32,000 nucleotides of DNA from Synechocystis sp. PCC 6803 substr. PCC-P (GCF_000284455.1 NC_017039.1:1170001-1202000); one strand, 5' to 3'; positions 1 through 15,493 are shown, counted from the stretch's first letter. Numbers and translations are program-made. Notes: generated by a model from the sequence alone, not told the origin.

Positions 1-442
1 AAACGTCTTGGGCTGATTGATAAAGGAGGGGAATATTTTGCACACCAATGACATCGGGAGCTACTTTGTCGATGATGGGCCCAGCAACGCTGACAATTTC
101 AAAACGTCCTCCGGTAATGAACTGTACTGCTTGGGGATCGCCAGCGGGAATGGAAGCGTCGTGGGGAATGGGGGAAACAAAAAGTTCTCCCTCCGTTTGC
201 TTAAATACTTCTAGCCACAGTTCTTCTAGGGCTTTATGGAGAGGGCTAGTGTCGGGTTGATTATGAAGATGGAAAGCTCGAATTTTTGCTTGGCTATAAT
301 ACTCCCCATACTTACCAGGCAGAGGCAAAATTTTGTTTAAAATTTCCTGGGGAATGCCCTCGGCTAATAGTTTTGGTGCGGCGATCGCCAGAAGGGAACT
401 GGCCCCTGCCAAAGCGAGAAAATTTCTCCGTGAATGTTTCAT
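1..442 (-). CDS. Periplasmic solute-binding protein, DctP/TRAP type (5' part; gene runs off the window start)
   Basis: Absent from the ORF track because it has no stop inside the window. Manual reverse translation from the ATG at 442-440 stays open to nt 1: MKHSRRNFLALAGASSLLAIAAPKLLAEGIPQEILNKILPLPGKYGEYYSQAKIRAFHLHNQPDTSPLHKALEELWLEVFKQTEGELFVSPIPHDASIPAGDPQAVQFITGGRFEIVSVAGPIIDKVAPDVIGVQNIPLLYQSAQDV.. It has a twin-arginine-like signal (SRRNFLALAG) followed by a pattern typical of DctP-family binding proteins. The family call is from memory. Confidence 0.6.
   Translation of the reverse strand, partial: MKHSRRNFLALAGASSLLAIAAPKLLAEGIPQEILNKILPLPGKYGEYYSQAKIRAFHLHNQPDTSPLHKALEELWLEVFKQTEGELFVSPIPHDASIPAGDPQAVQFITGGRFEIVSVAGPIIDKVAPDVIGVQNIPLLYQSAQDV
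381..388. repeat. HIP1 palindrome GCGATCGC (one of 18 perfect copies in the window; this one overlaps the left breakpoint of the duplication)
   Basis: Exact 8-mer read in the sequence. Other perfect copies start at 850, 3805, 4216, 5230, 9548, 10620, 11084, 11643, 14872, 15360, 16507, 20809, 24438, 26456, 28477, 29686 and 31106. Confidence 0.95.
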
Positions 443-590
443 AACTGATATTCCCCATTATTTAGCTCTGAATTATAAGGCGTAATTTTCTAGTCAAAGC
501 TGACCTCGACCACATTTTTGGCAAAGCTTCCATAATGCCTGGGTGATGGAATAGGCGGCGGCTTTGGAAGCAGAAAGGGAAATTACTGGG
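384..590. repeat. Left copy of a diverged direct duplication (SDR 3' end + spacer + binding-protein 5' end)
   Basis: Manual alignment gives three collinear blocks: 384-529 vs 10076-10220 (about 93% identity, one 1-nt indel), 534-575 vs 10428-10469 (40/42), and 576-590 vs 10497-10511 (13/15). Confidence 0.85.
490..590 (-). pseudogene. Decayed 3' fragment of a short-chain dehydrogenase gene (paralogous remnant of the intact gene at 10181-10927)
   Basis: The minus strand reads ..SFAKNVVEVSFD* (stop at 490-492), versus ..[12 protein letters not shown] at the end of the intact SDR. The upstream homology is interrupted by about 205-nt and 27-nt deletions relative to the intact gene. There is no start codon and no Rossmann region. 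Confidence 0.75.
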
Positions 591-825
591 AAAAACCCTA
601 CAAATGAAGGGTTTAGCTTCCTAGAAATTGCTGCTTAAATCTTGGAATGTAGCATCGGCACAGAAGATGGTTAAGCAATGGTTATGAGACTTTCCTAAAG
701 AATAATGATAATTTATCTACGGCTCTGGATAATTTTCTCGAAGACCTCCACCTCCCGGTCATAGACATAAGTACTTTCTACTTTGTTCAACATCCTGTTT
801 TTCCTCTGTCTTACATAAGGTATTT

Positions 826-3800
826 ATGGCTGCCTCTACCCAGACTCCGGCGATCGCCGTTGACTCGAACGGTTTTACACATTTAGTTTGGAACCAAAAT
901 AACGTCATTTACCACGCCTACTACGACCCTTCTGTCGGGCGGTGGCGGGAATCTGCTCCGATCGCCAATAGTGTCAGTGCCAAAGAACTTAAAATTACCA
1001 CAGGAGTACGAAGCCAAGGGGAAGAAACAGGAAGTTCCGTAGAGGGGATTTTTATTTCTTGGATCGAAGGAGAAGGAAATAACAGCGATATTCATGGCGC
1101 TAGCGGCATTCTCAATAGCCTAGGGCAATATAACTGGGGCCAAACATTCAAGCTCACCGATGACGCAGTGAGTGATGAAAATATGCGGTTGCAGACCACT
1201 GCCGACGGTAATCTGCTCCTAATCACCGAAAAAATTGACTTAGATGATCCCCAAGCTGACAGAGATTTATACAGCCAAGTCATAGACCTCAGAAACCGAG
1301 AAACACTCCATAACACCCTCACCCAGGTCAAGCCTCTCAATCCCAGTAATTTTATTGCTCCCAATGCTTCCCCCACCTTGGCCCTCGGAGATGGAGATAT
1401 ACAAGTTCCAGGAACTTTTTTAATCACGAAAGAAAACAAAAAAGAGTATCAACTTCCTTTATCTTTTTTTAACGGCAAATTGGAATTCAAAAATGCCCTT
1501 GCCCTAGGGGGGGGGATCAACTTTACGAACCTGATTAATTCGGGTGATCCAGGGCTATCTGCTTTTTTGCAACTGCAGGATGAACTGTCCGGGGCACTGA
1601 GCTTCGGTAAAAACAAGGTTTCCCTCAAAGGTCGTCTACAGGGGAAACTCCAACTAGATTTTTTACTTAACGGGGATGGCAATACTTTTTCTGCATCCGA
1701 TGCCCTGAGGCTCAGGGGAGAATACGAACGTAATTTATTACCAGGGAAAACCACCTATGACATTGGTTTTTCTGTAGGTGGAGTTCCGATTTCTCTCCTC
1801 GATGCTGAAGTTCAGTTGGGATTGCTTTTTGATTTGGCTTTTACGCTCAAACAAAAATGGAGTACAGATTTTGATCTTACCCCCCAAGCCCTAGTCACGG
1901 GGGGATCAACCCTAGCTGAAACTCAGACAGAAAATACAACTGTTGAATATTGGTATTCCTTGGTGCGGGCTGATGGCACTCCGGCCCAGCCTGGAGATGA
2001 CCCCAGCCAACTCTACTGGCTAATCAATTCGGACCAAGCCGCAGACAATTTGCTTGCGCCGCCCCCTGGTTTAGAAGCTCCAAGTCCAGCGGAATTAGCA
2101 CTGATTCCCGGCGTGGAAAACACTGGTCTTCTTAGCTTTGGCACTGGATTATCAGGCAAATTAAAGCTGGCCTTGCTTGGCTTTACGGCTTTTGATTTTG
2201 AAAGCAAGCTAGAGATCCTGGCAAACTTTGAAGTTTTCCCTAACGTCGGATTTGATAGCTTAGAAGAAACACTCGCACTAGGGCTAAATCTTTTTGGTAA
2301 AAAATGGTCCACAACCCTCAAAGTTGAGCAAAACTTCGATAATCCCAGCTTGATTGCAGAAAATTTGTCGACTACCCTCAATGCCGATGATTTGCTAGTT
2401 GGCATTAACCCTGATTTTATCCAAGGAAGTACTGCGATCTATGCGGGCAATCCCCTTGATGGCACTAGTGTTGGTTCTAATCTGACCGATGACACCTCCC
2501 CCAGTATTCTTGTAGCGAGTGATGGCAATCTTTATGCTACCTGGGTGAAAAATACCCATAATGAAAGTCTGTCCCAGGTGTTACTGGCGAAATCCACCGA
2601 TGGCGGCAATACCTGGAGCAATCCTTTAGTGATTCCCAACAGTGCCGGCATGAACTTTAACCCGGTCATCGGCACAACGGTAACGGGGCAACTATTGGTG
2701 GTTTGGAGTAATGCCAGTCCTGATATTTTTAATCCCGATGGAAGCGTTAACCGGCCTGAGTTTGTTGAATCCCTTGCGGCCAGTACGTTGTTCTATTCAA
2801 CCTCCAATGATAATGGCGCTACTTGGAGCGATGCCATACCCATTAACCCAGACATTAAAACTCCCCAGGCTTTGACCCTAACTCAACTGGCGAATGGCGC
2901 ATTACTTCTATCCTGGGTCGTAGCGGATACCCTGATACCAGATACCGGACTATATACCAATGGCGGTGACACTAAGAATGATGTACTTTACAGTTCTTTT
3001 TGGAATGGAACAAGCTGGAGTAATGCTCAAATCGTAGCTAGCGGTGACCTGCGTTTATTAGAAACGCCCGTATCTGCAACGGTGGGCGGCGAAGCGACAA
3101 TATTCTGGACAGAGGTGAATCCTGCTGCCGATGATGGCATAAGTATTTTTTATAGTAGCTATAATCAGCAATTTGCCCAGTGGACTCCTGCGGTTCTATT
3201 TGCGCCGGATTTATCAAACCTCACCACTTTCCAAACCGTGGCGGAGGCGATCGAAATTAGCAACAGCATCAGCAATCAAACAGTTAATTCTGCTTTTGAT
3301 CAGCCAACCCACAACAGTGTTGTGGCGGAAAGTGATTTGCGCTTAGTAATTCCCCACAACAATAGTCAAGGCTCCAGTCAACTCCAAGTTTCACCTATTC
3401 GGGTAAAAGAAACCGATGGCGAAGCTGTTTTGCTTGTGCGTCGCACCGGGAATATTCAAGAAGCGGTGAGCTTTAATTATCGTACTGTAGATGGTTCTGC
3501 CACAGCGGGGGCTGATTATGTAGCCCAGGCTGGAACCCTGACCTTTGCTCCAGGGGAAGTTTTCAAGGAGATTCGGATTGCAATCCTAGATGATGACATT
3601 ACCGAACGCCGGGCAGAAAAATTTCGGGTGGTCATCACTAGTGACCATGAAGGTGCTCACCTCCGCCTAGATGGTTTGCGTTTGGGGAATACCAGATTAG
3701 AACTCGTTGCAACGGTAACAACCATTGAGGATGAGCCAACCAGCCTATCTGAAATTGACAGTGGTTTCATCTTAAATGCAGATCCCCTAGCCCAAGCTGG

Positions 3801-6800
3801 TATGGCGATCGCCCCAGGGGGAGATATAAATAGTGATGGCACGGATGATTTCTTGGTAGGCGCACCGGCCAAAAATGGGGGCAATGGTGCCGTCTATGTG
3901 GTCTATGGTAATCCGACCATTGGCATTCGGGATCAAGGTCTATCCTTGGATAGTCTTGATGGTACTAATGGGGTCATTATCCAGGGAGCGAGTCAAAGCC
4001 TATTGGGAACGGCCATGGCGACGGCGGATTTAGACAGTGACGGGTTGAGTGATCTGGTGTTGGGAGCTCCTCAAAATTCAGTGCAAAATTCTGCGGGTAA
4101 AGTTTATATTCTGCGGGGTAGCAACGTCGAGGGTCAAAGCACTATTGATTTATCTACGGCTTCTAGTTTAGTTTTGGAGTCCAATCAAGCCGGTAATGCG
4201 GCGGGCTTTAAAACGGCGATCGCCGACGTGACAGGGGACGGTCTAGCAGATGTGATTATCAGTGCCCCTGCCATTAATACCATTTATGTAGTATTTGGGT
4301 CGGCCATTAAAAATGCCCTGAACAGTAACACCCCCTCCCTGAATTTGGACAATCTAGGCAGTGACGGCTTTCTTCTAAATACAGGGATCGGCCAAATCGG
4401 AACAGGATTAGGCGTGGCTGACATCAATGGCGATGGTGTCTTTGATCTATTATTGGGGGCACCCCAGGCCAATCCGGTAGATTATTCTGGTAGCGAAGAT
4501 GCGGATAGTAAGCCTCTAGCCTATGGCGGTCAGGTCTATGTTGCCTTTGGTGGCACCGGTTTAAATGGTTCTTTGAACCTAGGTCAACTCAATGGCAGTA
4601 ATGGTCTGATTCTCAATGGGCAAGCTTTTTATAACCAGTCCAACCTGGGGGGAGGCACCCCCTCTGACCCGAATTTACAGCCGGACTTCACTATTGCAGA
4701 TAACGCTGGCACCAACGTGGTCAATGCGGGCGACATCAATAATGACGGTTTCGATGACTTTATTATCAGCGCCGCCAACTCTGCCGCCAATGGCATTAAT
4801 GGCTTAGGGCGAGCCTATGTGGTTTTTGGCAAGGCTTCGGGATGGAATAGTGCGATTAATTTGCAAAATCTCGATGGCACCAATGGATTTATCATCAACG
4901 GTATTTACGATACAACCCAAAATTTGGGGGGTAATGCAGGGTACTGGATTTCCGCTGTCGGGGATATCAATAACGACTTTTTTGATGACTTTATTATCAG
5001 CGCGCCAACCTTAGGAACCAATGGGCCTAACAGTGCCACCGGCCAAAGTTATCTTATTTTAGGTACAAGTCAATGGGCTAATTTCCTCAATCAAGGGGTA
5101 CTGGAATTATCCGACGTCAATACTCTTAATAGTCGGGTCTTTTTGTTTAACAATCCTAACTCCGGTACTCAATTGGGCTTAGGCCTGGGGTCTATTGGGG
5201 ATGTGAATGGAGATGGTTCCCCCGATATGGCGATCGCCACGCCTCAGATCTATCCAGGAGTCGAGACTAGCCAAATTTACGTTGCCTACGGACACCCTTG
5301 GGTCGGAGCGGGCGGCAGTATTGATGTCACCAAATTGCGGAGTGATAACGGTTTTGTCTTCCAGCCCGTCACTAAGAATGAAATTGGAACGGTGCAGTTA
5401 GGGGCGGATATTAACAACGACGGCTATGTTGATACCCTAATTGCGGATGCGGGCTTTAATGGTGCTGGGGGGAAAATTGTTTACCTTTTCTTTGGCAGTG
5501 ACCCGGCTCAACCCAGCACTTTTGTCGATAGTGTAGCGATTACGATCGCCAGCAATGATGGTCTGATTTTAGGTCAGCAAACCCTCGACTACGGCGACTT
5601 CAACAACGATGGCATTACTGATTTTGTCGTTTCCCGCAGTGGCGCCTTAGGGCAAAGCTACGCAACCATTATTTTGGGTAGCGAAGATTCCTCCATCTGG
5701 TCAAGCATTAACCCCGATACCGGCATTGACATCAATAATTTACTTGCAAGTAATGGTGGTGTTAATATCACCGTTCCTAACGTTCCTAACCAAGGCGCAC
5801 TGGTGAATCTAGCCTCCGGTGACTTTAACGGGGATGGTATAGATGATGTTTTACTTAGCAGCGCAAACCTCAACCCAGTCATTGTTTTTGGCAAAGAAAC
5901 CTGGAGCAGTGGAGTAACTAGCAATGTCAATGTTTTAAATGAGTCTTTACCCATCCAAATTGAAGCGGGTAAACCAATTACAGCAGTCAATTCCCTGGGG
6001 GATGTTAATGGTGATGGCTACGAGGATTTTGGCTTGATTGGCATTGATGAGGTTAATGAAAACCTTTATGGTTACGTCATTTTTGGCAAAAACAATTTAG
6101 CCTCCAATTCCTCCCTCAATTTAGCAACCCTCAATGGCAGTAATGGCTTTAAGTTAACCTCTCCAAGCATTTCTAGCATATCTGAGCAGGGAGGAGTGGG
6201 CAGTATTAGCTTGGCAGGAGATCTCAACGGTGATGGCTTTGGAGACTTCATTGTCGGCCTGACGAATGATCTTAACTTTGGTAAGAATGGCGCAGCCTAT
6301 GTTGTCTTTGGAGGCCGTAACCTTGGCTCCAGCGGCTCTTTCAACCTCAGCAACTTAAATGGTGGCAACGGCTTCACCATCCAGCAGGCTCCTGGCTCAG
6401 AAGACCTCGTAGGTTATAGTATCGCTGGCGGCGGAGATATCAATGGGGATGGTTATGATGACTTGCTGGTTAGTGCCCCTAGCGCAGGAGTTGGGAACCC
6501 AGATGGGACAAATAATGGTGATACAGAAGGAACTATTTATACTCTATTTGGTAGTTCTATTCTCGGTGTTGGTGGCACGGTGGATCTGTCCAATTTAAAT
6601 GGCAGTAATGGATTTGAGACCGTTGGTGCCCAAGCCTATTCCTTTGCGGGTTCCTTTGTGGGGGGATTAAGTGATGTCAATGGGGACGGCTACGCCGATC
6701 TTGGCATTGGGGCCCAGGGTGACAACTCCCAAGGAGTTTCAGGGTTGGCCTACAACGTCTTTGGTGGGGACTTTACCCAGAATGTCACCTACGTTGGCAC

Positions 6801-9800
6801 TATTGACAACGACATTTTTTCGGCAACTTCCCTCGCAACCTCATCCGCTCCCCATATTATGAATGGGGGTCAGGGTAACGATATTTTGCAGAGCGCAGGT
6901 GTAAATGTTTCCGCCGGGGGACGAGTCGTGATGAATGGAGGCCAAGGCAATGACTTGCTATCCATCGGGAGTCTCAATTTTGAACGCTTGGACGGGGGTA
7001 GTGGTAAAGATATTTTGCAACTCAATAGTTACATTCTGTCTTCCAACAACCTTGACCTCACCGATACCACAATCGGCAGTCGGATCCGAGGTATTGAAGT
7101 CATTGACCTAGGAATTAACAATCGGGTCACGTTGAACGTAGAAACCCTCACAGCCTTATCTGATACCACCAACACTTTTACGGTTTTGGGTCATAACTCC
7201 TTTATCGTCGCCAGTGACTTCCAGAATTGGACAAAATCAGGGACTGTGACAGAACAAGGTGTAACTTATGACCAGTACATAAATAAGGGAACTAAGCTCT
7301 TAATTCAACAAAGCAATAATCTATTTGAGTCCACCGCTGTTTCCTCTGTGGCGGTCTATGGTACAGAAAACGGTGAAACCCTCGTGCCAGGTATTTTTCC
7401 CGGATTTGTCGGCAAAGATAATATCATTTTTGCCCTAGGGGGAGATGACTTAGTCGATCTGAGTCTGGCCCAGGGCAACAATCAAGTTTATGGTGGTCCA
7501 GGTAACGATCGCCTTATTGCAGGACAAAATGATTCTCTGTTCGGGGGTTTAGGAAACGACATCCTTGATACCTCGGGCGATCGGGGAACTAATAACCTAA
7601 ATGGTGGAGATGGAGATGATACTTTCTTCCTGGGACAGGGAGACAAGGCCTTCGGTAACGATGGTAATGATCGCTTCTTCATGCGGGGCAGTGGTCGAAA
7701 CTTGATCAGCGGTGGAGCCGGAGCGGATCATTTTTGGATTGCGGATATTGACTTTACCAATTCTTTTAATGCGATTCTGGACTTTGAGCTAGGTATTGAT
7801 ACCATTGGGCTTAAGGGTTTAGCTTCCCGTCAAGACGATCTCAAGCTCATTCAGTATGGCACTGATGTTTTAATTGCCCTAGGGGATGAATATCTGGCTC
7901 GGGTAACAGGTGTCCTGCGTCCCTTCCTAGAAGTTGTTAGTGATGGCATAGACCTATTTGTTCAAGGTGCCCAAGATGTATCTCCCATTGTCGTTAGCAA
8001 TACAAATGACTCGGGAGCCGGTTCCCTTCGGCAAGCCATTATTGATGCAGGCGCTAATGCCAGCCCCGATACGATTGATATGACTGGTATCGCCGCTGGC
8101 ACCATTATTTTGAATAGTCCTTTACCCACTCTCAATAACCGTAATGATATTACCTTTGTAACTCTAGGAGCCTTTGGTACTCCAACGATAAAGTTTAATA
8201 ACCCCTCGGCTTTCAACAATATTTTCACCCTTGAAGGGGTCGCAGTTAATCTTTCCTACATGAACTTGCAGAATGGCTATGCCAAAGGCGGCGATGGGGT
8301 AAGTGGCGGCGGCGGTGGTGCCGGGGCTGGTGGCGCCCTAACTATCCTCCAAGGTAGTACTGTCATTATTGATAATGTGAGCTTTGACAGCAATCGAGCC
8401 GTGGGCGGCAATGGAACAGCCGGGGCCCGTGGTGGTGGTGGTGAGATTTTTGGAACCCCGGATGATCGTCCTTCTGCCGGGGGAGGGGGCGGAAATTTTA
8501 ACGCCTCTGGTAATGCCAACAATGGCGGTGCCGCAGGGTCTGTTGGTGATGATAAAGCTGGGGGAACTGGGGGAACTGGGGGAACTGGAGGTTTCGGGAT
8601 CGGTGGCGGTGGCGGTGGTGGCGGTGGCGGTAGTTCAAGTGGTAGTCCATTTGATTTTACTCCCAGAAATGGAGGAAGTGGCGGCCCTGGTGGTGCTGGT
8701 GGCTTTGGTGCCGGTGGTGGTGCTGGTGGCGGTGGCGGTGGTTCTTCAGGACAAAATCCTGGTGATGATAAGAGAGGTGGCTTTGGTGGTTCTGGAGGGT
8801 CCGGAGGTGGCAATCCCATCGGTGGGAATGGTAGTGTAGGGTCTCAAGGGGGCGCTGGTAATACAGTTGAAGGAGGTAGTCCCGGAAATGGGGGTAGTGG
8901 CGGCGGCGGTGCTGGTTTAGGCGGTGCGCTCTTTATTAACCAGGCCACGGTTACCATCACTAATTCCCAGTTCAGTGGCAACACAACCCAAGGAGGAACT
9001 GGGGGAAATTCCGGTCAAGCATTGGGCGGAGCCATTTTTATTACCGACAATTCCTTCGTGACTGGTGCGGGTCTGACATTCAGCAATAATTCTGCTCCCA
9101 GTAGTCCCGGCGGTAGTTTTAGCAATGCCTATGGCCAGTTCCAAAACAATAATGATGTCTATGGCACCATTGATTCCCTTTCCAATGCTTCAACGAACCT
9201 ATTCCTGGTTCCTCCCCTTACTCCCGAGGTGCAAAACGAGATAAGCGTCGTTGCTAAAGACAATCTTTTCTTTGTGCAATTGCCTGACGGCAGTGAAGTC
9301 AGTCTTCTTTACGAGGATCAGCCCTTTGTAAGTGGCAGTTTTGGAAATTGGCAAATCCTCGAAGCAGAAACAATTAATGGTGTTAATAACGTGCTTTGGC
9401 AGAATCCTGATATTGATGAAATTGGGGTTTGGAACGCCGATAGTAACTGGAACTGGATTTCGTCCGAAACTTGGCCTACCAATTCTTTCAACACTTTGGA
9501 AGCAGAAATTAATTTCCAGATTGATTTAAACGGCGATGAACTCCTTGGCGATCGCCTTACAAATATTGAAAGCAAAGGTAACACTAGTTTTCTCGAAGGT
9601 ATCTTTGGTAATTATTATGTTCAAACTGGGGATGATTTAACGGCACCAATCAAATATCTGGGTGAAGTATTTGAAAACAATTTTGGTGACTGGCAGGGCC
9701 TAGCAGCGGAGACAGTTAATGGTATTAACCAGGTACTTTGGCAAAACCTTGAAACTAGTGAAATTGGTGTTTGGAGCACCGATAGCAACTGGAATTGGCT

Positions 9801-9876
9801 GTCATCAGACGTTTTCGCCGCTGGCTCTCTCCAAGCCCTAGAGCAACAGTTAATTTTTGCCGTAGATGTTAACTGA
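826..9876 (+). CDS. Giant (3016 aa) multidomain extracellular/adhesin-like protein: BNR propeller, Calx-beta, FG-GAP (integrin-alpha-like) propellers, RTX Ca-binding repeats, PMP-type beta-helix, Gly-rich region, Trp-rich C-terminal repeats
   Basis: Single uninterrupted 9051-nt ORF in the track. Every ORF in the other frames or on the other strand across it is short. Domain motifs are listed in the sub-features below. The N-terminus MAASTQTPAIAVDSNG has no classical signal peptide. Confidence 0.95.
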   Translation: MAASTQTPAIAVDSNGFTHLVWNQNNVIYHAYYDPSVGRWRESAPIANSVSAKELKITTGVRSQGEETGSSVEGIFISWIEGEGNNSDIHGASGILNSLGQYNWGQTFKLTDDAVSDENMRLQTTADGNLLLITEKIDLDDPQADRDLYSQVIDLRNRETLHNTLTQVKPLNPSNFIAPNASPTLALGDGDIQVPGTFLITKENKKEYQLPLSFFNGKLEFKNALALGGGINFTNLINSGDPGLSAFLQLQDELSGALSFGKNKVSLKGRLQGKLQLDFLLNGDGNTFSASDALRLRGEYERNLLPGKTTYDIGFSVGGVPISLLDAEVQLGLLFDLAFTLKQKWSTDFDLTPQALVTGGSTLAETQTENTTVEYWYSLVRADGTPAQPGDDPSQLYWLINSDQAADNLLAPPPGLEAPSPAELALIPGVENTGLLSFGTGLSGKLKLALLGFTAFDFESKLEILANFEVFPNVGFDSLEETLALGLNLFGKKWSTTLKVEQNFDNPSLIAENLSTTLNADDLLVGINPDFIQGSTAIYAGNPLDGTSVGSNLTDDTSPSILVASDGNLYATWVKNTHNESLSQVLLAKSTDGGNTWSNPLVIPNSAGMNFNPVIGTTVTGQLLVVWSNASPDIFNPDGSVNRPEFVESLAASTLFYSTSNDNGATWSDAIPINPDIKTPQALTLTQLANGALLLSWVVADTLIPDTGLYTNGGDTKNDVLYSSFWNGTSWSNAQIVASGDLRLLETPVSATVGGEATIFWTEVNPAADDGISIFYSSYNQQFAQWTPAVLFAPDLSNLTTFQTVAEAIEISNSISNQTVNSAFDQPTHNSVVAESDLRLVIPHNNSQGSSQLQVSPIRVKETDGEAVLLVRRTGNIQEAVSFNYRTVDGSATAGADYVAQAGTLTFAPGEVFKEIRIAILDDDITERRAEKFRVVITSDHEGAHLRLDGLRLGNTRLELVATVTTIEDEPTSLSEIDSGFILNADPLAQAGMAIAPGGDINSDGTDDFLVGAPAKNGGNGAVYVVYGNPTIGIRDQGLSLDSLDGTNGVIIQGASQSLLGTAMATADLDSDGLSDLVLGAPQNSVQNSAGKVYILRGSNVEGQSTIDLSTASSLVLESNQAGNAAGFKTAIADVTGDGLADVIISAPAINTIYVVFGSAIKNALNSNTPSLNLDNLGSDGFLLNTGIGQIGTGLGVADINGDGVFDLLLGAPQANPVDYSGSEDADSKPLAYGGQVYVAFGGTGLNGSLNLGQLNGSNGLILNGQAFYNQSNLGGGTPSDPNLQPDFTIADNAGTNVVNAGDINNDGFDDFIISAANSAANGINGLGRAYVVFGKASGWNSAINLQNLDGTNGFIINGIYDTTQNLGGNAGYWISAVGDINNDFFDDFIISAPTLGTNGPNSATGQSYLILGTSQWANFLNQGVLELSDVNTLNSRVFLFNNPNSGTQLGLGLGSIGDVNGDGSPDMAIATPQIYPGVETSQIYVAYGHPWVGAGGSIDVTKLRSDNGFVFQPVTKNEIGTVQLGADINNDGYVDTLIADAGFNGAGGKIVYLFFGSDPAQPSTFVDSVAITIASNDGLILGQQTLDYGDFNNDGITDFVVSRSGALGQSYATIILGSEDSSIWSSINPDTGIDINNLLASNGGVNITVPNVPNQGALVNLASGDFNGDGIDDVLLSSANLNPVIVFGKETWSSGVTSNVNVLNESLPIQIEAGKPITAVNSLGDVNGDGYEDFGLIGIDEVNENLYGYVIFGKNNLASNSSLNLATLNGSNGFKLTSPSISSISEQGGVGSISLAGDLNGDGFGDFIVGLTNDLNFGKNGAAYVVFGGRNLGSSGSFNLSNLNGGNGFTIQQAPGSEDLVGYSIAGGGDINGDGYDDLLVSAPSAGVGNPDGTNNGDTEGTIYTLFGSSILGVGGTVDLSNLNGSNGFETVGAQAYSFAGSFVGGLSDVNGDGYADLGIGAQGDNSQGVSGLAYNVFGGDFTQNVTYVGTIDNDIFSATSLATSSAPHIMNGGQGNDILQSAGVNVSAGGRVVMNGGQGNDLLSIGSLNFERLDGGSGKDILQLNSYILSSNNLDLTDTTIGSRIRGIEVIDLGINNRVTLNVETLTALSDTTNTFTVLGHNSFIVASDFQNWTKSGTVTEQGVTYDQYINKGTKLLIQQSNNLFESTAVSSVAVYGTENGETLVPGIFPGFVGKDNIIFALGGDDLVDLSLAQGNNQVYGGPGNDRLIAGQNDSLFGGLGNDILDTSGDRGTNNLNGGDGDDTFFLGQGDKAFGNDGNDRFFMRGSGRNLISGGAGADHFWIADIDFTNSFNAILDFELGIDTIGLKGLASRQDDLKLIQYGTDVLIALGDEYLARVTGVLRPFLEVVSDGIDLFVQGAQDVSPIVVSNTNDSGAGSLRQAIIDAGANASPDTIDMTGIAAGTIILNSPLPTLNNRNDITFVTLGAFGTPTIKFNNPSAFNNIFTLEGVAVNLSYMNLQNGYAKGGDGVSGGGGGAGAGGALTILQGSTVIIDNVSFDSNRAVGGNGTAGARGGGGEIFGTPDDRPSAGGGGGNFNASGNANNGGAAGSVGDDKAGGTGGTGGTGGFGIGGGGGGGGGGSSSGSPFDFTPRNGGSGGPGGAGGFGAGGGAGGGGGGSSGQNPGDDKRGGFGGSGGSGGGNPIGGNGSVGSQGGAGNTVEGGSPGNGGSGGGGAGLGGALFINQATVTITNSQFSGNTTQGGTGGNSGQALGGAIFITDNSFVTGAGLTFSNNSAPSSPGGSFSNAYGQFQNNNDVYGTIDSLSNASTNLFLVPPLTPEVQNEISVVAKDNLFFVQLPDGSEVSLLYEDQPFVSGSFGNWQILEAETINGVNNVLWQNPDIDEIGVWNADSNWNWISSETWPTNSFNTLEAEINFQIDLNGDELLGDRLTNIESKGNTSFLEGIFGNYYVQTGDDLTAPIKYLGEVFENNFGDWQGLAAETVNGINQVLWQNLETSEIGVWSTDSNWNWLSSDVFAAGSLQALEQQLIFAVDVN
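2470..3200 (+). other. BNR/Asp-box sialidase-like beta-propeller segment of the giant protein
   Basis: Two canonical S-x-D-x-G-x-T-W boxes: STDGGNTW (nt 2593-2616) and SNDNGATW (nt 2803-2826). These are flanked by strand-like W motifs (LYATWV, LVVWSN, LLLSWVV, TIFWTE). Boundaries are approximate. Confidence 0.6.
3388..3645 (+). other. Calx-beta domain of the giant protein
   Basis: VSPIRVKETDGEAVLLVRRTGNIQEAVSFNYRTVDGSATAGADYVAQAGTLTFAPGEVFKEIRIAILDDDITERRAEKFRVVIT matches the classic Calx-beta pattern (T.dGtA.ag.DY....g.l.F.pGe..k.i.i.i.dD...E..E.F). Confidence 0.75.
3790..6725 (+). repeat. Array of 14 FG-GAP (integrin-alpha-type) repeats
   Basis: There are 14 Ca-loop motifs of the form D-x-[ND]-x-D-G-x-x-D, each followed by a hydrophobic strand: GDINSDGTDDFLVGAP, ADLDSDGLSDLVLGAP, ADVTGDGLADVIISAP, ADINGDGVFDLLLGAP, GDINNDGFDDFIISAA, GDINNDFFDDFIISAP, GDVNGDGSPDMAIATP, ADINNDGYVDTLIADA, GDFNNDGITDFVVSRS, GDFNGDGIDDVLLSSA, GDVNGDGYEDFGLIGI, GDLNGDGFGDFIVGLT, GDINGDGYDDLLVSAP, SDVNGDGYADLGIGAQ. 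Many are followed by (A)YVVFG and LNGSNGF motifs. Confidence 0.8.
6859..7740 (+). repeat. Two blocks of hemolysin-type (RTX) Ca-binding nonapeptide repeats
   Basis: Block 1 (about 6859-7020): GGQGNDIL, GGQGNDLL, GGSGKDIL. Block 2 (about 7432-7740): GGDDLVDL, GGPGNDRL, GGLGNDIL, GGDGDDTF, GNDGNDRF, GGAGADHF. These fit the GGxGxDxL/F consensus. Confidence 0.7.
7990..9100 (+). other. Parallel beta-helix-like region with PMP-type repeats (GGA[LI]..FxxN) and an N-terminal GSLRQAI motif
   Basis: NDSGAGSLRQAIIDA (CSLREA-like motif) is followed by GGALTILQGSTVIIDNVSFDSN, GGALFINQATVTITNSQFSGN and GGAIFITDNSFVTGAGLTFSNN. The assignment is from memory of the polymorphic-membrane-protein repeat pattern. 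Confidence 0.5.
8280..8920 (+). repeat. Glycine-rich low-complexity region (GGY codon runs, 9-nt tandem GGAACTGGG x3 at 8563-8589)
   Basis: The translation is dominated by G: ..GGTGGTGGTGGFGIGGGGGGGGGGSSSG..GGSGGPGGAGGFGAGGGAGGGGGGSSG... The DNA shows ggaactggg ggaactggg ggaactgga followed by a cggtggcggtggcggtggtggcggtggcggt run at 8601-8630. Confidence 0.9.
9274..9873 (+). repeat. C-terminal tandem Trp-rich repeat, 2 copies, period 342 nt (114 aa)
   Basis: GNWQILEAETINGVNNVLWQNPDIDEIGVWNADSNWNWISSE (starts nt 9343) aligns with GDWQGLAAETVNGINQVLWQNLETSEIGVWSTDSNWNWLSSD (starts nt 9685). Confidence 0.85.
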
Positions 9877-10014
9877 GTTATTAAAGCTTCCGGGAAGAGG
9901 TGATCAACTGACAAACTCATCACTTTCTGAAGCCGAGGAGCTCTGCGACCCCGAGTCCTTTTTAGGTAATCATGGACGACCTTCGGCATTATTCACATTT
10001 ACCACGGCAAGACC

Positions 10015-10134
10015 TTAATATGGTGCGAGTCCCCCGCCTTGAGCGCCCTGGGCAAGCCCCTTCAAAAAGTCGTTTATCGCCAGAAGGGAACTGGCCCCTG
10101 CCAAAGCGAAAAAATTTCTCCGTGAATGTTTCAT
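10015..10134 (-). pseudogene. 5' stub of the DctP-type binding-protein gene (right copy of the duplication)
   Basis: The ATG at 10134-10132 reads MKHSRRNFFALAGASSLLAI, matching the first ~19 codons of the gene at 1-442. It then diverges (NDFLKGLAQGAQGGGLAPY) and stops after 39 codons. Confidence 0.75.
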
Positions 10135-10511
10135 AACTGATATTCCCCATCATTTAGCTCTGAATTATAAAGTCTAATTTTCAATCAAAGCTGACCTCAA
10201 TCACATTTTTGCCAAAGCTTTGATAGGCATCGCCCATTCCTTTCGCCATGGTGTCGTTGGGAAAAACGTGAAACTCGCCAGATTGTAGTGCAGCAATAAT
10301 AGCTTCCGCCACTAGGGTGGGGGATTCGGCAATATCAGCCCGGCCAGAAGCATGGGTCATTTCGGTGGCGATGGGGCCAGGATGGACGCTCTGAACCAGA
10401 GTGCCTTGTCCAGCCAGAACTTCCCGCAATGCCTGGGTAATGGAATAGGCTGCGGCTTTGGAAGCAGAATAAGTAGCAACATTGCAGAATGACTTGAGGG
10501 AAACTACTGAG
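10076..10511. repeat. Right copy of the diverged direct duplication (includes the intact SDR 3' region)
   Basis: See the left copy at 384-590. The offset is 9692 nt for the first block. Confidence 0.85.
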
Positions 10512-10927
10512 TTGAGTTGCACAAAAGCTCCCCCTCCATTGGCTTTGAGCACTGGAGCAAAGGCTTGGGCCATGGAGATCAACCCATACACATTGGTCTC
10601 CATTTCAAATTTCAAGCAGGCGATCGCCTCTTCGGCCAGGGGATTTGCAACTTTTTGCACCCCGGCATTATTGACCACAATTTCCACATCTGTGGCGGTT
10701 TGGGCAGCGGCGGCAATGGATTCTGGGTCTGCTAGATCGATCAAAATAGGGACTATTTTATTGCCATATTTGTCCACTAAGAAAGCGGCGCTTTCCAACT
10801 TTCTGACGGCGGCGTACACTTTTGCGGCCCCATGCTCCAAAAAAGACTCCACCAGTACTTTGCCTATCCCCCGATTGGCACCAGTAACCAGAACTGTTTT
10901 GTTGCTAATATCGATGGCCATGGGCAT
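10181..10927 (-). CDS. Short-chain dehydrogenase/reductase (SDR) family oxidoreductase
   Basis: 248-aa ORF with [12 protein letters not shown] (TGxxxGxG Rossmann motif), VVNNAGV (NNAG) and YSASKAA (catalytic YxxxK). Confidence 0.9.
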
Positions 10928-11318
10928 GTCTCCGGGAATATCAGTTAAAACATTACAACGATTAGCCTAATTAAGTCCCCAAAATTTAGATACGTTTCGT
11001 AAACTAAGTACAAATTATGTAAGTGGAGTTAGATTTTGGTTTAAAATTGCCTGGAGTATCTGCCAAAACATAAGTTCAAGCTGGCGATCGCCATTGGGCA
11101 ATGGGTTCTAATAGGTTCTAGCCAAAGCAAGAAATTTTTCATTTAAGCAACTCAATTAGTGATACAGATCGTTGAATTGCCAAAAAATAAGTATGATTAA
11201 TCTTAATGATTAGATTCCCGTCGTAGTTTACCCTGTTGCGGCGGCACAAAATCAATTTTTTAAAAGTCTTAACTATGAGTAAAATTAGGATTATTTCACT
11301 AACTAGAGGCAAATTTCT

Positions 11319-11864
11319 GTGAAAGTGAGCAAACGTTTTTTCCAGCCTTGTTTAGTGTTGGGGATTTCCCTTGGTTTATCTTTAGCCCTTGTTCCTGACG
11401 CCCTAGCCCTAAAAACCTATTATCAATTGCCCATAAGCCTAGCAGTAGAAGCGGCCATGGAAGCGGTCAATACCTGTCAACAGGATGGTTATAACGTCAC
11501 CGCCACGGTGGTCAATCGAGAAGGTTTAGTACAAGCTGTAATTCGGGGAGATGACGCCACCCCCCACACCATCGAAAATAGTTTTTATAAAGCCTTTACT
11601 TTGATTACCCTGGGCCCCATCACTGGGCAAGATTCCACTGGGGCGATCGCCCAAAAGATGACCCCAGCTCCTTTGCCTGTGGGTTCTGTGCCCTTGGCTC
11701 CCAATCCTATTACTGGTCTTAGTTTTAGCACCGGCGGCTCAGCCATTAAAGTGGGAGACCAATTAGTGGCGGCGATCGGCGTTTCTGGTTCACCCAATGG
11801 TAATTTAGACCAAACCTGTGGTCTGAAAGGTATTGAAAAAATTAAATCCCGTTTAGTGCCTTAA
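11319..11864 (+). CDS. Exported GlcG/HbpS-like (DUF336) protein, paralogue 1
   Basis: GTG start with AGAGG 10 nt upstream. Signal peptide MKVSKRFFQPCLVLGISLGLSLALVPDALA. Family-like core: VTATVVNREG..IRGD...H.....KA.T and AAIGVSGSPNGNLDQTCG. About 40% identical by eye to the ORF at 14966-15493. Confidence 0.75.
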   Translation: MKVSKRFFQPCLVLGISLGLSLALVPDALALKTYYQLPISLAVEAAMEAVNTCQQDGYNVTATVVNREGLVQAVIRGDDATPHTIENSFYKAFTLITLGPITGQDSTGAIAQKMTPAPLPVGSVPLAPNPITGLSFSTGGSAIKVGDQLVAAIGVSGSPNGNLDQTCGLKGIEKIKSRLVP

Positions 11865-11970
11865 ACTTTTACCCTTGTCCATGGTTGGTAACCCTTAAGC
11901 TTTTTTTACGGAAGACGATCAAGCGAAATATAAAGAAAAGTATCTCACTAAAGCCATCGAAATATTTTCC

Positions 11971-12840
11971 ATGAAACAGGTTAATTTTTTAGCTGGATTT
12001 TTGTCTAATTCCCTTATTACTTTAGTTATTATCTTTGTTGTCACTGTTGCCACCGTTACCACCTTACAAACAGCTAAAGCCGTTGCAACTTTAGATAATC
12101 AAAATATCTATACACCATCGGCGAGCAATATTCGAGGCATTCAGGAACGAATTGTTTATGATTTTCCCGATACGGGTTTGAAATTAACCATGCCCAGATT
12201 TCTTAAAGATCCTGTGGCTTTCGAAACTCCAGGCAAAGACGTATTAATTATGTTGAGAACACCGGCTGATACCTGTGGCTTGTATCAAATGGCGGAGGCT
12301 ATCTTAACCCCTAATGCTGGTCCGCCGCCCCATTTTCATTACGCTTCCGATGAGTGGTTTTTTTCTACGGAACCATCCCAAGTTCGGCTTTATAGTTCTC
12401 AGGAATTTCAGGCCCCGTTACAAGTCGGTCAAATTCCTGGGATTAATGTTGACCCCATTAAAGTTGGTTCCGTTCTCGAAGATCAAGGGGAAATAATTTT
12501 TTCTCCTAGGGGGATGGTGCATTATTTTCGTAATGAAACTCCGGGGAAAGCGGAAGTCCGGGGTTTTTATAATGTTTGGGCTCCTGGCTATGGCATTTCC
12601 GAACGATTTGAAGGAATTGATAACCTTGATGGATCCAACAGCAACCAGTCCATCCCCTTGGCACAGAAAGAGTTTTTACAAACAGCCCTTTGGGGAATTC
12701 CCCACGATATCACCGGCGGCTTTGTGGGAACTAAGGATTATTACAATGAGCGGGGTTCTGTTTTTATTCATCCCGATAACATCGAGGAACTCCAAGCCCT
12801 GTTCGACCAGGGGGAAGCTTGCTATCCCAATGAAGGATAA
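11971..12840 (+). CDS. Exported cupin-domain protein, paralogue 1 (divergent)
   Basis: N-terminal hydrophobic signal/anchor (..LITLVIIFVVTVATVTTLQTAKA). Cupin motif 1 is GPPPHFHYASDEWFF and motif 2 is GMVHYFRN. It shares the Cys pair (TCG...ACY) with the paralogues at 18334-19140 and 19365-20168. Confidence 0.75.
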   Translation: MKQVNFLAGFLSNSLITLVIIFVVTVATVTTLQTAKAVATLDNQNIYTPSASNIRGIQERIVYDFPDTGLKLTMPRFLKDPVAFETPGKDVLIMLRTPADTCGLYQMAEAILTPNAGPPPHFHYASDEWFFSTEPSQVRLYSSQEFQAPLQVGQIPGINVDPIKVGSVLEDQGEIIFSPRGMVHYFRNETPGKAEVRGFYNVWAPGYGISERFEGIDNLDGSNSNQSIPLAQKEFLQTALWGIPHDITGGFVGTKDYYNERGSVFIHPDNIEELQALFDQGEACYPNEG

Positions 12841-12919
12841 ATTGAATTTAATCTCTACATAATTAGACTTTTTTTCAAAAAAATATTTCAGTTTTTATTC
12901 TCAATTCAGGATTTTTTAA

Positions 12920-13900
12920 ATGCGTATTTTTCCTGTATTTTTACTAACTTTCAGCCTTTTTTTAATCAAGGAAGAAATAGTTACAGCAGAAGTTAAAGTT
13001 TCTGCGCCGGTGGTTAATCAATCTGGCATTAAGCTAAATCTTGAGCGACAATTTACGGGGTCTGATGTGGCTATTAACCGTATCCATTTTAGTCCCGACG
13101 GACAATTTTTACTAACGGCGGCCGCAGATGGCGTGGGCACTTTATGGACTAAAGAAGGGGAAATGCTGGGGCAACTACAGGGTCAAAAGCCCCCCATGTT
13201 CAATGCTCGTCTTTCCCCCGATCGCCAAATTTTAATCACCACTGGCTATGACGGTACCATTCGCTTGTGGAATTTGCAGGGGGAGCTACTGGAGGAACAA
13301 CAGCCCCATCGAGCAGCGGTGGCCGATGCCATATTTAGTCCCGACAGTCAAATTATTGTCACCTGTTCTGATGATGGCCAAACTAAAATTTTTACCCGCC
13401 AAGGTCAAGAAATAGCTAGTGTTTTAAAATCAGGTACAGCTCGAAATTTGGCGTACCATCCCCAGGGACTTTTAATTGCTAGTGTTTCCGATAGCGGTTC
13501 CCTCCATTTAATTAATCCCAACGGCAAAATTGAACGGGAAATTTCCACAGGCCAAGGGCGAATTAATAATGTTAACTTTAGTCCGAATGGTGAACAATTA
13601 TTAACTTCAGGCATTAATGGTTCTGCCAAGTTATGGAATTTAGCAGGGGAATTAATCCATGAATATAAAGTTGTGCCCACCGGTTGGGTTAACAGTGCCC
13701 AGTTCTATCCTAAAGGTGAATGGCTAGCCACCGCCAGTGACGACGGTACGATTAGATTTTGGCAAAAAGATGGTCAATTAATTTATGAATTACCGTTGGT
13801 TAATGCCCGCTTAACTAGCTTGAGTTTTTCTCCCGATGGCAAGCAGTTAGCGGCCACCAGCAGTCAGGGACAGGTTTGGGTTTTTAATTTATCTTATTAA
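12920..13900 (+). CDS. Exported WD40 (seven-bladed beta-propeller) protein, paralogue 1
   Basis: Signal peptide MRIFPVFLLTFSLFLIKEEIVTA. There are seven ~41-aa repeats with the F/Y-SPDG...D-G-T-x-x-LW pattern (IHFSPDGQ..GTLW, RLSPDRQ..IRLW, IFSPDSQ..TKIF, AYHPQG..LHLI, NFSPNGE..AKLW, QFYPKGE..IRFW, SFSPDGK..VWVF). Confidence 0.85.
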   Translation: MRIFPVFLLTFSLFLIKEEIVTAEVKVSAPVVNQSGIKLNLERQFTGSDVAINRIHFSPDGQFLLTAAADGVGTLWTKEGEMLGQLQGQKPPMFNARLSPDRQILITTGYDGTIRLWNLQGELLEEQQPHRAAVADAIFSPDSQIIVTCSDDGQTKIFTRQGQEIASVLKSGTARNLAYHPQGLLIASVSDSGSLHLINPNGKIEREISTGQGRINNVNFSPNGEQLLTSGINGSAKLWNLAGELIHEYKVVPTGWVNSAQFYPKGEWLATASDDGTIRFWQKDGQLIYELPLVNARLTSLSFSPDGKQLAATSSQGQVWVFNLSY

Positions 13901-13914
13901 GGATTAATAGCAAG

Positions 13915-14919
13915 ATGAAACATAAATTTCTAGTTAGTTTTTTACTGGGATTAACCATTAGTTTCGCGGGCGCCCAGGTTATTGCTAAAACGCCCTCGGT
14001 TAATAACGCCCCTGTAGCGCGGAGTGTAAACCAATCCCCCATTCAGCTAGAAGTTATTAAAAGTTACCAGGGTCATACGCTCAAAGGGGAAGCAATTATT
14101 CAAATTCATTACAGTCAAGATGGCAATTATTTGCTCTCTACTGCCACCGATGGTTTGGCTAAACTTTGGACAGCGGATGGAGAATTGGTGCGGGAATTTG
14201 CTGGTAAGCCTGTAGCTATGATTTTTAACGGTGCCTTTAGCAGGGACGGGAAAGCCATTATTACCGCTGGCTACAACGGTGTTGCCCGTATTTGGGATGT
14301 GCAGGGCAATGTATTGGGGGAAATTCTAGGCCACACTTCTGCTGTTACCGATGTAGTTTTCTTGAGTGATGATATGGGGGTAGTCACCAGTTCCGATGAC
14401 GGCACTATTGAAGGTTGGTCAAACATTAAAGAACCACTGTTTACTGTAACTCGTCCTGGGGTGAGTCGTAATATGGACTTTAATGCCCAGACAAACTTGA
14501 TTGCTGTCACCCAAGATATTGGCGAAATTACGTTACTAAATCCCGCTGGAAAAGTTGTAAGAATTATCGAAACCGATCAAGGTCGCCTCAATGATGTCGA
14601 TTTTAGTCAAGATGGTAAGTTGTTAGTTACAGCTGGTTTTGATGGCACAGCTCGGGTGTTTAATCTTGATGGCCAAGAAATATTAAAAATTGATGTGCTT
14701 GATGATGGGTGGGTTACTGGGGTTGCCATCAACCAAGACAATTTAATTGCCACCGTTTCCGACGATGGCATTTTAAGAGTGTGGAATTTACAGGGACAAT
14801 TATTGGGGCAATATAACCCCAATTTAGAAAGATTGGGCAGTGTATCTTTCCATCCCAACGGCAAAAATTTGGCGATCGCCGCTTACCACGGCACCATTAT
14901 TTTGCTGGAGTTGCAATAA
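13915..14919 (+). CDS. Exported WD40 (seven-bladed beta-propeller) protein, paralogue 2
   Basis: Starts 14 nt after the previous gene. Signal peptide MKHKFLVSFLLGLTISFAGAQVIA. WD-like repeats include IHYSQDGN..AKLW, AFSRDGK..ARIW, VFLSDD..IEGW, DFSQDGK..ARVF, ..LRVW and SFHPNGK. Confidence 0.85.
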   Translation: MKHKFLVSFLLGLTISFAGAQVIAKTPSVNNAPVARSVNQSPIQLEVIKSYQGHTLKGEAIIQIHYSQDGNYLLSTATDGLAKLWTADGELVREFAGKPVAMIFNGAFSRDGKAIITAGYNGVARIWDVQGNVLGEILGHTSAVTDVVFLSDDMGVVTSSDDGTIEGWSNIKEPLFTVTRPGVSRNMDFNAQTNLIAVTQDIGEITLLNPAGKVVRIIETDQGRLNDVDFSQDGKLLVTAGFDGTARVFNLDGQEILKIDVLDDGWVTGVAINQDNLIATVSDDGILRVWNLQGQLLGQYNPNLERLGSVSFHPNGKNLAIAAYHGTIILLELQ

Positions 14920-14965
14920 ATAGGAAGAAGACTGATATTTTTGCCCGATTCTTAACTATTTTCAC

Positions 14966-15493
14966 TTAACGTAAATCTGGCAGAACAGCATCCCGACCTT
15001 TAATGGCACAACCTTCGTCCACCATCCCAATGGGAGTGCCGGAAACCCCCAAGCCTCCCACCACTTTGCCCTGGGAAATCAAGGTCACTCCGCCGGGAAA
15101 AAGGGTGATGCCCGTGAGGGGATCGGCAGGCATGGGCCATGTGCCCACTCCCTGGGCTCCCTTTGCTTGCATTGACGCCAAAATACCAGAAGTCCTGTCC
15201 AAATTATGATTGGTAGCTAGGGTAACGGCGGAATAGGCTTTATTGAATGAAGTTTGCACCGTATGCACAAGGGCCCCATCGCTACGAATGACCACCAACA
15301 CATTACCTTCGGGATTGACGACGGTGGCCGTAACCCCATAACCTTCCTGACGACAAGCGGCGATCGCCGACTGGGCCGCTTTAATGGCAATTTCCGCAGG
15401 TAAAACGGGGGTTTCTTCTAGGGCCAAAGCTGGTAGAGCTAAACCCGTTAAAGCAATGGTAGTTAATAGCGGAGTAAAAGTAAATTTGAGCAT
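14966..15493 (-). CDS. Exported GlcG/HbpS-like (DUF336) protein, paralogue 2
   Basis: Signal peptide MLKFTFTPLLTTIALTGLALPALA. Core motifs are VTATVVNPEGNVLVVIRSDGA..HT and GGLGVSGTPIGMVDEGCA. Both Cys positions are conserved with paralogue 1 (ACRQ/TCQQ and EGCA/QTCG). Confidence 0.75.
   Translation of the reverse strand: MLKFTFTPLLTTIALTGLALPALALEETPVLPAEIAIKAAQSAIAACRQEGYGVTATVVNPEGNVLVVIRSDGALVHTVQTSFNKAYSAVTLATNHNLDRTSGILASMQAKGAQGVGTWPMPADPLTGITLFPGGVTLISQGKVVGGLGVSGTPIGMVDEGCAIKGRDAVLPDLR

Follow-up and report, generated by a model that had tools for sequence, protein, structure and literature searches.

The window analysed here is a stretch of 32 000 nucleotides (nt), one strand, from Synechocystis sp. 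PCC 6803 substr. PCC-P (GCF_000284455.1 NC_017039.1:1170001-1202000), and positions are counted from its first nucleotide. It carries the giant gene slr1403, which lies between two copies of a direct repeat composed of the 3' end of a short-chain dehydrogenase/reductase (SDR) gene and the 5' end of a DctP-type periplasmic binding-protein gene. The structure of this duplication and its probable history are described below.

The DctP-type gene occupies positions 2-442 on the minus strand, where its 5' part begins with a twin-arginine translocation (Tat)-like signal, MKHSRRNFLALAGASSLLAIAAP, and it runs past the left end of the window. The assignment was made by a match to Pfam DctP (PF03480, E = 7e-9); in the PCC 6803 genome the gene is complete at 369 amino acids (aa; locus L019 4508-5617) and is probably sll1314. 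slr1403 follows on the plus strand (826-9876) and encodes 3016 aa with FG-GAP, Calx-beta, BNR-like and W_rich_C domains; the product is probably secreted or located at the cell surface. The 3016-aa protein contains no cysteine and has a long, glycine-rich repetitive stretch encoded at approximately 8287-8930. A single close ortholog was found, in Synechocystis sp. PCC 7339 and identically in PCC 7338 (80% aa identity), with more distant orthologs in Cyanobacterium aponinum (60%) and Synechococcus PCC 6312 (51%). To the right lies an intact SDR oxidoreductase gene (10181-10927, minus strand, 248 aa), which is 100% identical to PCC 6803 sll1308; a scan of genome contigs with the SDR protein returned only relatives of 25-29% identity.

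The upstream flank of the giant gene (577-825, plus strand) is orthologous to positions 9752-10000 of the PCC 7339 contig L011, at 78% identity. A hairpin within this flank, AAACCCT-N8-AGGGTTT at 594-615 and followed by TTT on the minus strand, is kept in PCC 7339 (L011 ~9770-9792); it has the look of a terminator and its fold was not significant (z = -1.6). The downstream flank (9877-10075, 50% GC) is orphan sequence, for which no relative was found by blastn, tblastx or local alignment, PCC 7339 included, and metagenome scans with a 20-mer from this orphan flank and with a conserved motif of the upstream flank were both empty. Open reading frame (ORF) and Pfam searches of the insert revealed no plasmid rep, integrase or transposase domain, only slr1403 and its flanks, and megablast of window positions 1-12000 against 72,556 plasmids gave no match, leaving a plasmid donor unsupported. 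Searches for tRNA genes and Rfam families yielded nothing.

The duplicated unit on either side of slr1403

Positions 384-575 and 10076-10469 of the window form a direct repeat, in the same orientation and at 93-95% identity. With block coordinates taken from local alignment, 384-490 matched 10076-10182 at 102/107 nt and 534-575 matched 10428-10469 at 40/42; between these blocks 492-529 matched 10183-10220 at 34/38, the left copy having a 1-nt insertion at 491. A last block, 576-590 against 10497-10511, was identical at 13 of 15 positions (14 of 15 in L018, a contig described below). A repeat finder agreed on these blocks. The left copy is without 10221-10427 (207 nt), in place of which it has CCAT at 530-533, and without 10470-10496 (27 nt). 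Two copies of the repeat were found in the 32-kb window and one per locus in eight related loci, the search covering these and not the rest of the PCC 6803 genome. The duplication is real and specific to the locus: it consists of parts of single-copy genes, and the many copies at unrelated loci that mark a dispersed-repeat family were not seen. Neither does it resemble a transposon or insertion sequence, since the duplication is at least 394 nt long, has no inverted repeats at its ends and is accompanied by no transposase ORF.

Each copy is made up, on the minus strand, of the 3' end of the SDR gene, 46 nt of spacer and 59 nt from the start of the DctP-type gene. On the left, the 59 nt of DctP (384-442) belong to the functional gene and are 58/59 identical to 10076-10134, while the spacer (443-489) is 42/46 identical to 10135-10180, with left-specific changes at 481 and 482 and the indel at 491. 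Beyond the spacer lies a pseudogene fragment of the SDR 3' end (490-575), in which 490-529 correspond to the last 12 codons and stop (SFAKNVVEVSFD*), 530-533 are the CCAT filler and 534-575 an internal piece of the gene, the 207 nt between the two pieces being missing. On the right, the copy extends over 10076-10469, and possibly to 10511, and includes 289 nt from the end of the intact SDR gene as well as the spacer (46 nt) and the 59 nt of DctP. The DctP portion here opens a stub ORF of 39 codons (10015-10134, minus strand; MKHSRRNFFALAGASSLLAINDFLKGLAQGAQGGGLAPY*), whose first 20 residues are the start of the DctP signal peptide and whose remainder is read from the downstream flank of the giant gene. 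This stub is a dead remnant, and it has one derived change (10110) relative to all orthologs.

The repeat homology begins at 384, inside an octamer of the highly iterated palindrome HIP1 (GCGATCGC, 381-388) which lies in DctP codons 19-21 (AIA) and is kept in all DctP orthologs. The break falls between 383 and 384, the left copy reading GCG|ATCGCC and the right copy TTT|ATCGCC (10073-10081), where the giant gene's downstream flank meets the half-HIP1 at DctP codon 20.

Much of this structure had been proposed in an initial annotation of the window. Its alignment of 384-529 with 10076-10220 at about 93% identity with one 1-nt indel, its collinear continuation in 534-575 (40/42) and 576-590 (13/15), and its description of the unit as SDR 3' end, spacer and DctP 5' codons, with a decaying fragment on the left and an intact SDR gene and 39-codon stub on the right, were all recovered by local alignment and the repeat finder. 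The placement of the left breakpoint within a HIP1 palindrome was likewise upheld, and HIP1 was found at two independent junctions in relatives as well; the dispersed, multi-copy repeat that by its own account would have refuted it was not seen, the unit having two copies in the window and one per locus in relatives. Losses of about 205 and 27 nt had been proposed for the left copy. The first stands, at 207 nt, but the second may not exist. Positions 577-9876 are collinear with PCC 7339, therefore the SDR fragment may end at 575, and the last block, 576-590, is equally well read as the upstream flank of the giant gene. These ambiguous 15 nt, which are SDR-like and at the same time collinear with the PCC 7339 flank, may be microhomology that was used at a deletion joint.

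The neighbourhood in related strains

Contigs of relatives were looked up from the closest SDR homologs and from members of the SDR 90% cluster. Empty sites, with the SDR and DctP genes separated by 45-46 nt and the giant gene absent, were found in five strains or contigs: CACIAM 05 (L014), CS-94 (L004), the Logan contigs L007 and L017, and the ENA contig L008. CACIAM 05 was 97.4% identical to window positions 1-529 and 98.2% identical to 10076-20931, with no gap against 10076-12050. The empty sites indicate that the adjacency of SDR and DctP, in the order DctP-SDR-HbpS (termed type A), is the ancestral state. A search for such an empty site had been proposed by the initial annotation.

A second arrangement (type B) was found in PCC 7339, and also in PCC 7338, in which all genes are complete and the duplication is absent. 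On contig L011 of PCC 7339 the order is DctP (minus, 7394-8503), SDR (minus, 8589-9329), the giant gene (plus, 10001-18985) and an HbpS-like gene (plus, 19306-19851), and window positions 577-9876 are collinear with L011 9752-18985 at 77% identity. The giant-gene cassette of PCC 7339 occupies the slot equivalent to the SDR-HbpS intergenic region of the window (10928-11318), standing in place of the central part of the type A intergenic region, with a boundary at the HIP1 site of that region (11084-11091 in the window). In PCC 6803 the same region is of the empty type and uninterrupted, ungapped against CACIAM 05 and homologous to L008, L017 and S. salina LEGE 00031 (L005), a close relative of PCC 7339. 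The type A intergenic region is ancestral; its central part is common to the 6803 clade and LEGE 00031 (score 47 vs 19.6 ± 3.2 for shuffles). The giant gene was detected in the PCC 6803 clade and PCC 7339/7338, and not in CACIAM 05, CS-94, LEGE 00031 or others. The whole neighbourhood is a rearrangement hotspot. Descent of PCC 7339 from a duplicated state like that of PCC 6803 was considered and rejected, as no SDR or DctP remnants were found near its giant gene, either at L011 9496-9751 or downstream of the gene.

The composition of the giant gene was native. G+C content at third codon positions was 0.437, against 0.441 for 21 other ORFs, and relative synonymous codon usage correlated at r 0.886 (control, 0.942). 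HIP1 occurred at 5 sites in 591-10075 (0.53/kb) against 0.58/kb outside, in line with the similar densities reported initially. Divergence of the giant gene from its PCC 7339 ortholog (77% nt identity) was like that of flanking genes (77-86%). These data indicate that the giant gene has long been resident in Synechocystis genomes, and the native codon usage, a comparison proposed by the initial annotation, fits a cyanobacterial donor.

Ancestry of the two copies and history of the locus

We consider it moderately probable that the PCC 6803 locus is a recombinant of two versions of one chromosomal neighbourhood, with and without the giant gene. In its left half the window has the type B layout but lacks most of the SDR gene; in its right half, from DctP codon 20 through SDR and the complete intergenic region to HbpS, it follows type A. 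The parents would have been a DctP-SDR-giant-HbpS chromosome, as in PCC 7339/7338 today, and a DctP-SDR-HbpS chromosome, as in CACIAM 05 today. One homologous exchange and one illegitimate joint between them would give DctP-SDR-giant-[DctP 5' stub]-SDR-HbpS. The illegitimate joint would be 10075|10076, connecting the downstream flank of the giant gene to the HIP1 site in DctP codons 19-21, and the event would have left two copies of a segment made up of the entire SDR gene, the 46-nt spacer and 59 nt from the start of DctP. Subsequently the redundant left SDR copy would have decayed, by an internal deletion of 207 nt, by loss of approximately 850 nt (the 5' half of the left SDR, the adjoining intergenic DNA and part of the region upstream of the cassette) and possibly by deletion of a further 27 nt.

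Three routes could lead to one and the same product. A circle excised from a type B chromosome, closed between the downstream flank and DctP codon 20, may have entered a type A chromosome by a single crossover of the Campbell ('ends-in') kind. In the other two routes linear DNA would have been taken up, Synechocystis being naturally transformable, and inserted by homology-facilitated illegitimate recombination: either type B DNA paired homologously within the DctP gene and its far end was attached by an illegitimate joint, or type A DNA paired within HbpS and an illegitimate joint connected it to a chromosome of type B. We infer the order of these events and the nature of the recombining molecules, as well as any role of HIP1 in the break.

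The shared SDR-giant adjacency in PCC 7339 and the collinearity from 577 onwards argue that the left boundary at 575/590 is probably a later deletion in a once-complete second SDR copy and not an integration joint. The sole joint without a counterpart in either parental arrangement is 10075|10076, which is best read as the only new joint.

These observations bear on the initial annotation, in which a Campbell-type integration of an insert of about 9.5 kb with two integration boundaries had been proposed. That interpretation was right in kind, in that the locus is a single-crossover-type scar with an empty site in relatives; the topology, the empty sites and the locus-specific repeat all agree with it. 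The identity of the insert and the left boundary do not, as PCC 7339 has the giant gene beside an intact SDR gene and is collinear from 577. In its strict form it would require a circle which carried only a fragment of about 440 nt of the SDR-3'/DctP-5' junction together with the giant gene, so that 590|591 and 10075|10076 would both be original boundaries. The arrangement of one full and one partial gene on either side of the insert (full A and fragment B, insert, fragment A and full B) fits such a circle, as does the existence of empty sites, and the short similarity between SDR and upstream flank at the left boundary could be its joint. However, in PCC 7339 the giant gene adjoins the SDR gene in the same orientation, with that SDR gene complete and nothing duplicated, and the circle would itself have to derive from such a layout. 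The internal 207-nt deletion points to deletional decay of the left SDR fragment, the insert is devoid of plasmid, rep and integrase genes and matched no plasmid, and two illegitimate joints would be needed rather than one. We regard the origin from a small circle of this kind as unlikely.

The ancestry of the two copies was compared over 202 shared columns, and over 137 columns for L015, a contig from a strain about 1% divergent. The left copy agreed with the right at 189/202 columns (93.6%). The right copy matched CACIAM 05 at 196/202 and L015 at 135/137, while the left copy matched CACIAM 05 at 190/202 and PCC 7339 at 152/202; judged from these columns, the left copy belongs to the 6803 lineage and not to the PCC 7339 lineage. 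At position 10212, a nonsynonymous difference (Ala to Gly), the right copy, CACIAM 05 and L015 are alike, whereas the left copy and every outgroup have C. At 10439 the same three share a state that is not in the left copy, the outgroups being split (C in L008, L007 and PCC 7339, T in CS-94, A in L017). These shared states suggest that the left copy split off before the right copy, CACIAM 05 and L015 diverged. G at 10151 was found only in the right copy and CACIAM 05, with A in L015 and the left copy, and the left copy has few derived changes of its own (481, 482 and the extra nucleotide at 491). The dead left fragment looks more ancestral than the live SDR gene, which is the opposite of what a duplication in place followed by decay predicts. 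Two moderately diverged strains that recombined could give this ancestry, and so could an event older than the split from CACIAM 05 and followed by pop-out loss there.

Such a duplication in place would be a tandem or segmental duplication in a DctP-SDR-giant-HbpS ancestor, followed by loss and decay, with no second type of chromosome involved. The two copies are closer to each other (93.6%) than to L017, L008, L007, CS-94 and PCC 7339 (75-90%), which would agree with a duplication of this type, and Synechocystis is polyploid, which makes unequal sister exchange easy. However, after a tandem duplication of type B a second cassette would be expected on the right of the SDR gene. None is there, and the region is uninterrupted, of the empty type and ungapped against CACIAM 05, so that the second cassette would need to have been excised precisely; a hybrid of B on the left and A on the right is therefore the best reading. 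In addition, the right copy is nearer to CACIAM 05 and L015 than to the left copy, and the pseudogene fragment keeps ancestral states where the functional copy has derived ones. We regard an intrachromosomal origin as quite improbable. The segmental duplication followed by insertion and decay which the initial annotation had offered as its alternative is not favoured on the same grounds, namely the differing histories of the copies and the uninterrupted, empty-type intergenic region on the right.

The structure was also found in a second strain. The Logan contig L018 (SRR27833275) has the same deletions, the same two joints, including an identical new joint, and a left SDR pseudogene fragment built identically, with 99.05% identity over window positions 449-10105. 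As the joints are identical in a strain about 1% divergent, the event predates the split of the two strains and is not a laboratory artefact; the structure is natural and common to a small clade. Logan unitig contigs from three samples (L015, L016, L018 and L022) end within the unit, at window equivalents 10141, 449-10105 and 432-10110. L015, the SDR-side contig of SRR27833275, ends inside the repeat, and so does L022, a PCC 6803 unitig contig of another sample.

A further history would involve two steps, in which the cassette first disrupted the DctP gene of an empty-type chromosome by inserting at its HIP1 site, and recombination with wild-type DNA later restored the gene, bringing its 5' end, the spacer and a piece of SDR to the left side. 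The right joint does lie within HIP1, the cassette of PCC 7339 also abuts a HIP1 site, which makes HIP1-targeted insertion conceivable, and the left joint has 4-6 nt of microhomology (AAGC). Two independent illegitimate events would be required, however, the SDR-giant adjacency and orientation held in common with PCC 7339 would become a coincidence, and the 207-nt internal deletion would be explained no better. This history appears very improbable.

Several points weigh against a hybrid of two locus types. The ancestry argument depends on only two or three informative sites, and recombination among Synechocystis strains is rampant, gene-by-gene identities being mosaic, such that a later allelic replacement of the right copy could mimic a foreign left copy. 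No genome of the 6803 lineage was found with DctP-SDR-giant-HbpS or with two intact SDR copies, and no relative was found for the downstream flank (9877-10075), which adjoins the new joint. The absence of the giant gene from CACIAM 05 could reflect pop-out between the repeats and not an original lack. The match of 576-590 to SDR 10497-10511 is also only partly explained.

HIP1 sites, known systems and consequences

Three independent joints within approximately 12 kb fall in HIP1: the PCC 6803 stub, a DctP/WD40-like fusion in S. salina LEGE 00031 and the cassette boundary of PCC 7339. At the first, GTTT|ATCGCC, no intact HIP1 was regenerated; the coding strand keeps GGCGAT and then continues into foreign sequence. 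At the second, the SDR gene of LEGE 00031 is followed by the same DctP stub, here fused in frame to the last ~56 codons of a WD40-like gene to give an ORF of 77 aa (L005 10748-11066), 21 aa of which are the start of the DctP signal peptide. The joint sequence, GGCGATCGCCG, is present in both parental sites of PCC 7339 (L011 ~8440-8450 and ~6451-6471), from which the fusion reads as a clean deletion of about 2 kb between two direct HIP1 copies. The event is independent of that in PCC 6803 and has its breakpoint in the same DctP HIP1 site. This joint is the only one that regenerated an intact HIP1. LEGE 00031 also keeps a second, diverged pair of DctP and WD40-like genes at L005 6910-9097. At the third joint, the left boundary of the PCC 7339 cassette (L011 9440-9500 against L005 9860-9880), homology ends within HIP1, at GGCGATC|AGC, or, under an alternative parsing, just after a second, intact HIP1 37 nt further on (L011 9487). 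The sequence of this boundary, GGCGATC|AGCTGG...GGAGCGGCGATCGCC|TAG, is readable as a 37-nt insertion that duplicates GGCGATC.

Two of these three joints retain only the GGCGAT(C) half, which is what cleavage at CGAT^CG, a PvuI-type position in HIP1, would leave, and the third is an exact HIP1-to-HIP1 rejoining. HIP1 was thus found at 3 of roughly a dozen joints in the neighbourhood, where a random position would fall in HIP1 in ~0.5% of cases (a rough estimate, from 0.55 sites/kb); as a post hoc count this recurrence is suggestive. It raises the tentative, and to us rather doubtful, possibility that HIP1 octamers are preferred sites of breakage and rejoining by which genes are shuffled in Synechocystis.

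At the smt locus of Synechococcus PCC 6301, Gupta et al. (1993) reportedly described a deletion that ran from one HIP1 copy to another. The breakpoints described here resemble such known HIP1-associated recombination in lying inside the octamer, and the LEGE 00031 event is a direct-copy deletion. Unlike in a simple HIP1-to-HIP1 exchange, only a half-HIP1 is present at the joint in PCC 6803 and, under one parsing, in PCC 7339; no enzyme is implicated. Plasmid recombination at HIP1 in PCC 7002 has been reported (Akiyama et al. 1998, as cited in PMC5861425), and a Chi-like role of HIP1 in transformation of PCC 7002 has been proposed (bioRxiv 10.1101/2024.09.10.611283).

When a non-replicating circular construct integrates into the Synechocystis chromosome by the Campbell ('ends-in') route, the region of homology ends up as direct repeats flanking the integrated DNA, and every gene reaching across it is present once whole and once truncated. 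The locus shares both features, as well as the empty site in relatives and reversibility by pop-out between the repeats. It differs in that the integrated DNA has no vector, replication or integrase function, although it may have come from an excised circle free of backbone, and in that the duplicated region was probably the whole SDR gene with the DctP 5' end and not the ~440 nt that survive. The two ends of a Campbell insert are ends of the homology fragment; here the left end is the start of collinearity with PCC 7339, and the circular intermediate is presumed.

Homology-facilitated illegitimate recombination during natural transformation is known from Acinetobacter and Streptococcus pneumoniae; to our knowledge, it has not been documented in Synechocystis. 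One homologous anchor, exactly one illegitimate joint and a competent host are common to that process and the present locus, but the outcome here is a duplication and not the usual replacement or deletion. Microhomology of at most 1 nt can be deduced at the illegitimate joint, the downstream flank (9877-10075) having no relative. Presence or absence among strains, the same neighbourhood and native composition are also features of a genomic islet, in which a flexible gene is swapped via its flanks. Unlike such an islet, the PCC 6803 copy is displaced by one gene relative to the PCC 7339 slot, with a duplicated segment flanking it, an outcome that simple flank-mediated replacement does not yield.

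Other features of the neighbourhood were recorded. A 289-aa ORF with a weak cupin hit (11971-12840) lies between the HbpS-like gene and a pair of WD40 genes in PCC 6803, CACIAM 05 and L015, and is absent in CS-94, L007, L008, L017 and PCC 7339, in which HbpS is followed directly by the WD40 genes. It represents a further presence/absence difference of this neighbourhood, and HIP1 was not seen at the edges of the ORF. Two adjacent minus-strand ORFs of 268 and 267 aa with no Pfam family (18545-18969 against 19576-20000, 70-74% DNA identity) are a tandem pair of paralogs kept in all related loci. In the Logan contig L010 (SRR16483019, 10001-10741; 82% SDR identity) the SDR gene is located between alpha/beta-hydrolase and polysaccharide-deacetylase genes, with DctP not nearby. 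A 7.6-kb Logan contig (P0180) encodes a 6803-type SDR variant with a different N-terminus and a stop that is read through (..SFDWKLDFIIQS), which may represent an engineered or mutant strain or a sequencing error.

A TATAAT motif was spotted by eye in the left spacer (472-477, minus strand), ~30 nt upstream of the DctP ATG, and TTATAAT is kept in all four aligned sequences (both PCC 6803 copies, CS-94 and L007). Consensus promoter and terminator scans around both copies returned nothing above shuffle expectation, and the terminator scan showed no terminator-like site after the SDR gene. The motif is a putative DctP promoter; if it functions as such, it would explain expression of DctP after its separation from SDR, and the stub copy may act as an orphan promoter from which transcripts would enter slr1403 at its 3' end. 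RNAs antisense to the gene, slr1403-as6 and -as8, have been reported, without coordinates (PMC3516471).

The locus is a further instance of a known and ordinary kind of recombination scar, and leaves the current understanding of recombination unchanged. Its interest lies in what it shows for the main cyanobacterial model strain, namely how a 9-kb surface-protein gene changed its slot, leaving behind a dead signal-peptide stub and a decaying SDR fragment. The duplication explains the breaks in short-read assemblies at the slr1403 locus, and predicts that slr1403 can be lost via pop-out between the 145-nt repeats. The most interesting lead is the recurrence of breakpoints in HIP1, which constitutes a small natural data set on the function of this element. 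Should HIP1 octamers prove to be preferred sites of breakage and rejoining, then the function or consequence of HIP1, which has long been debated, would in part be the channelling of illegitimate recombination and of the gain and loss of gene islets.

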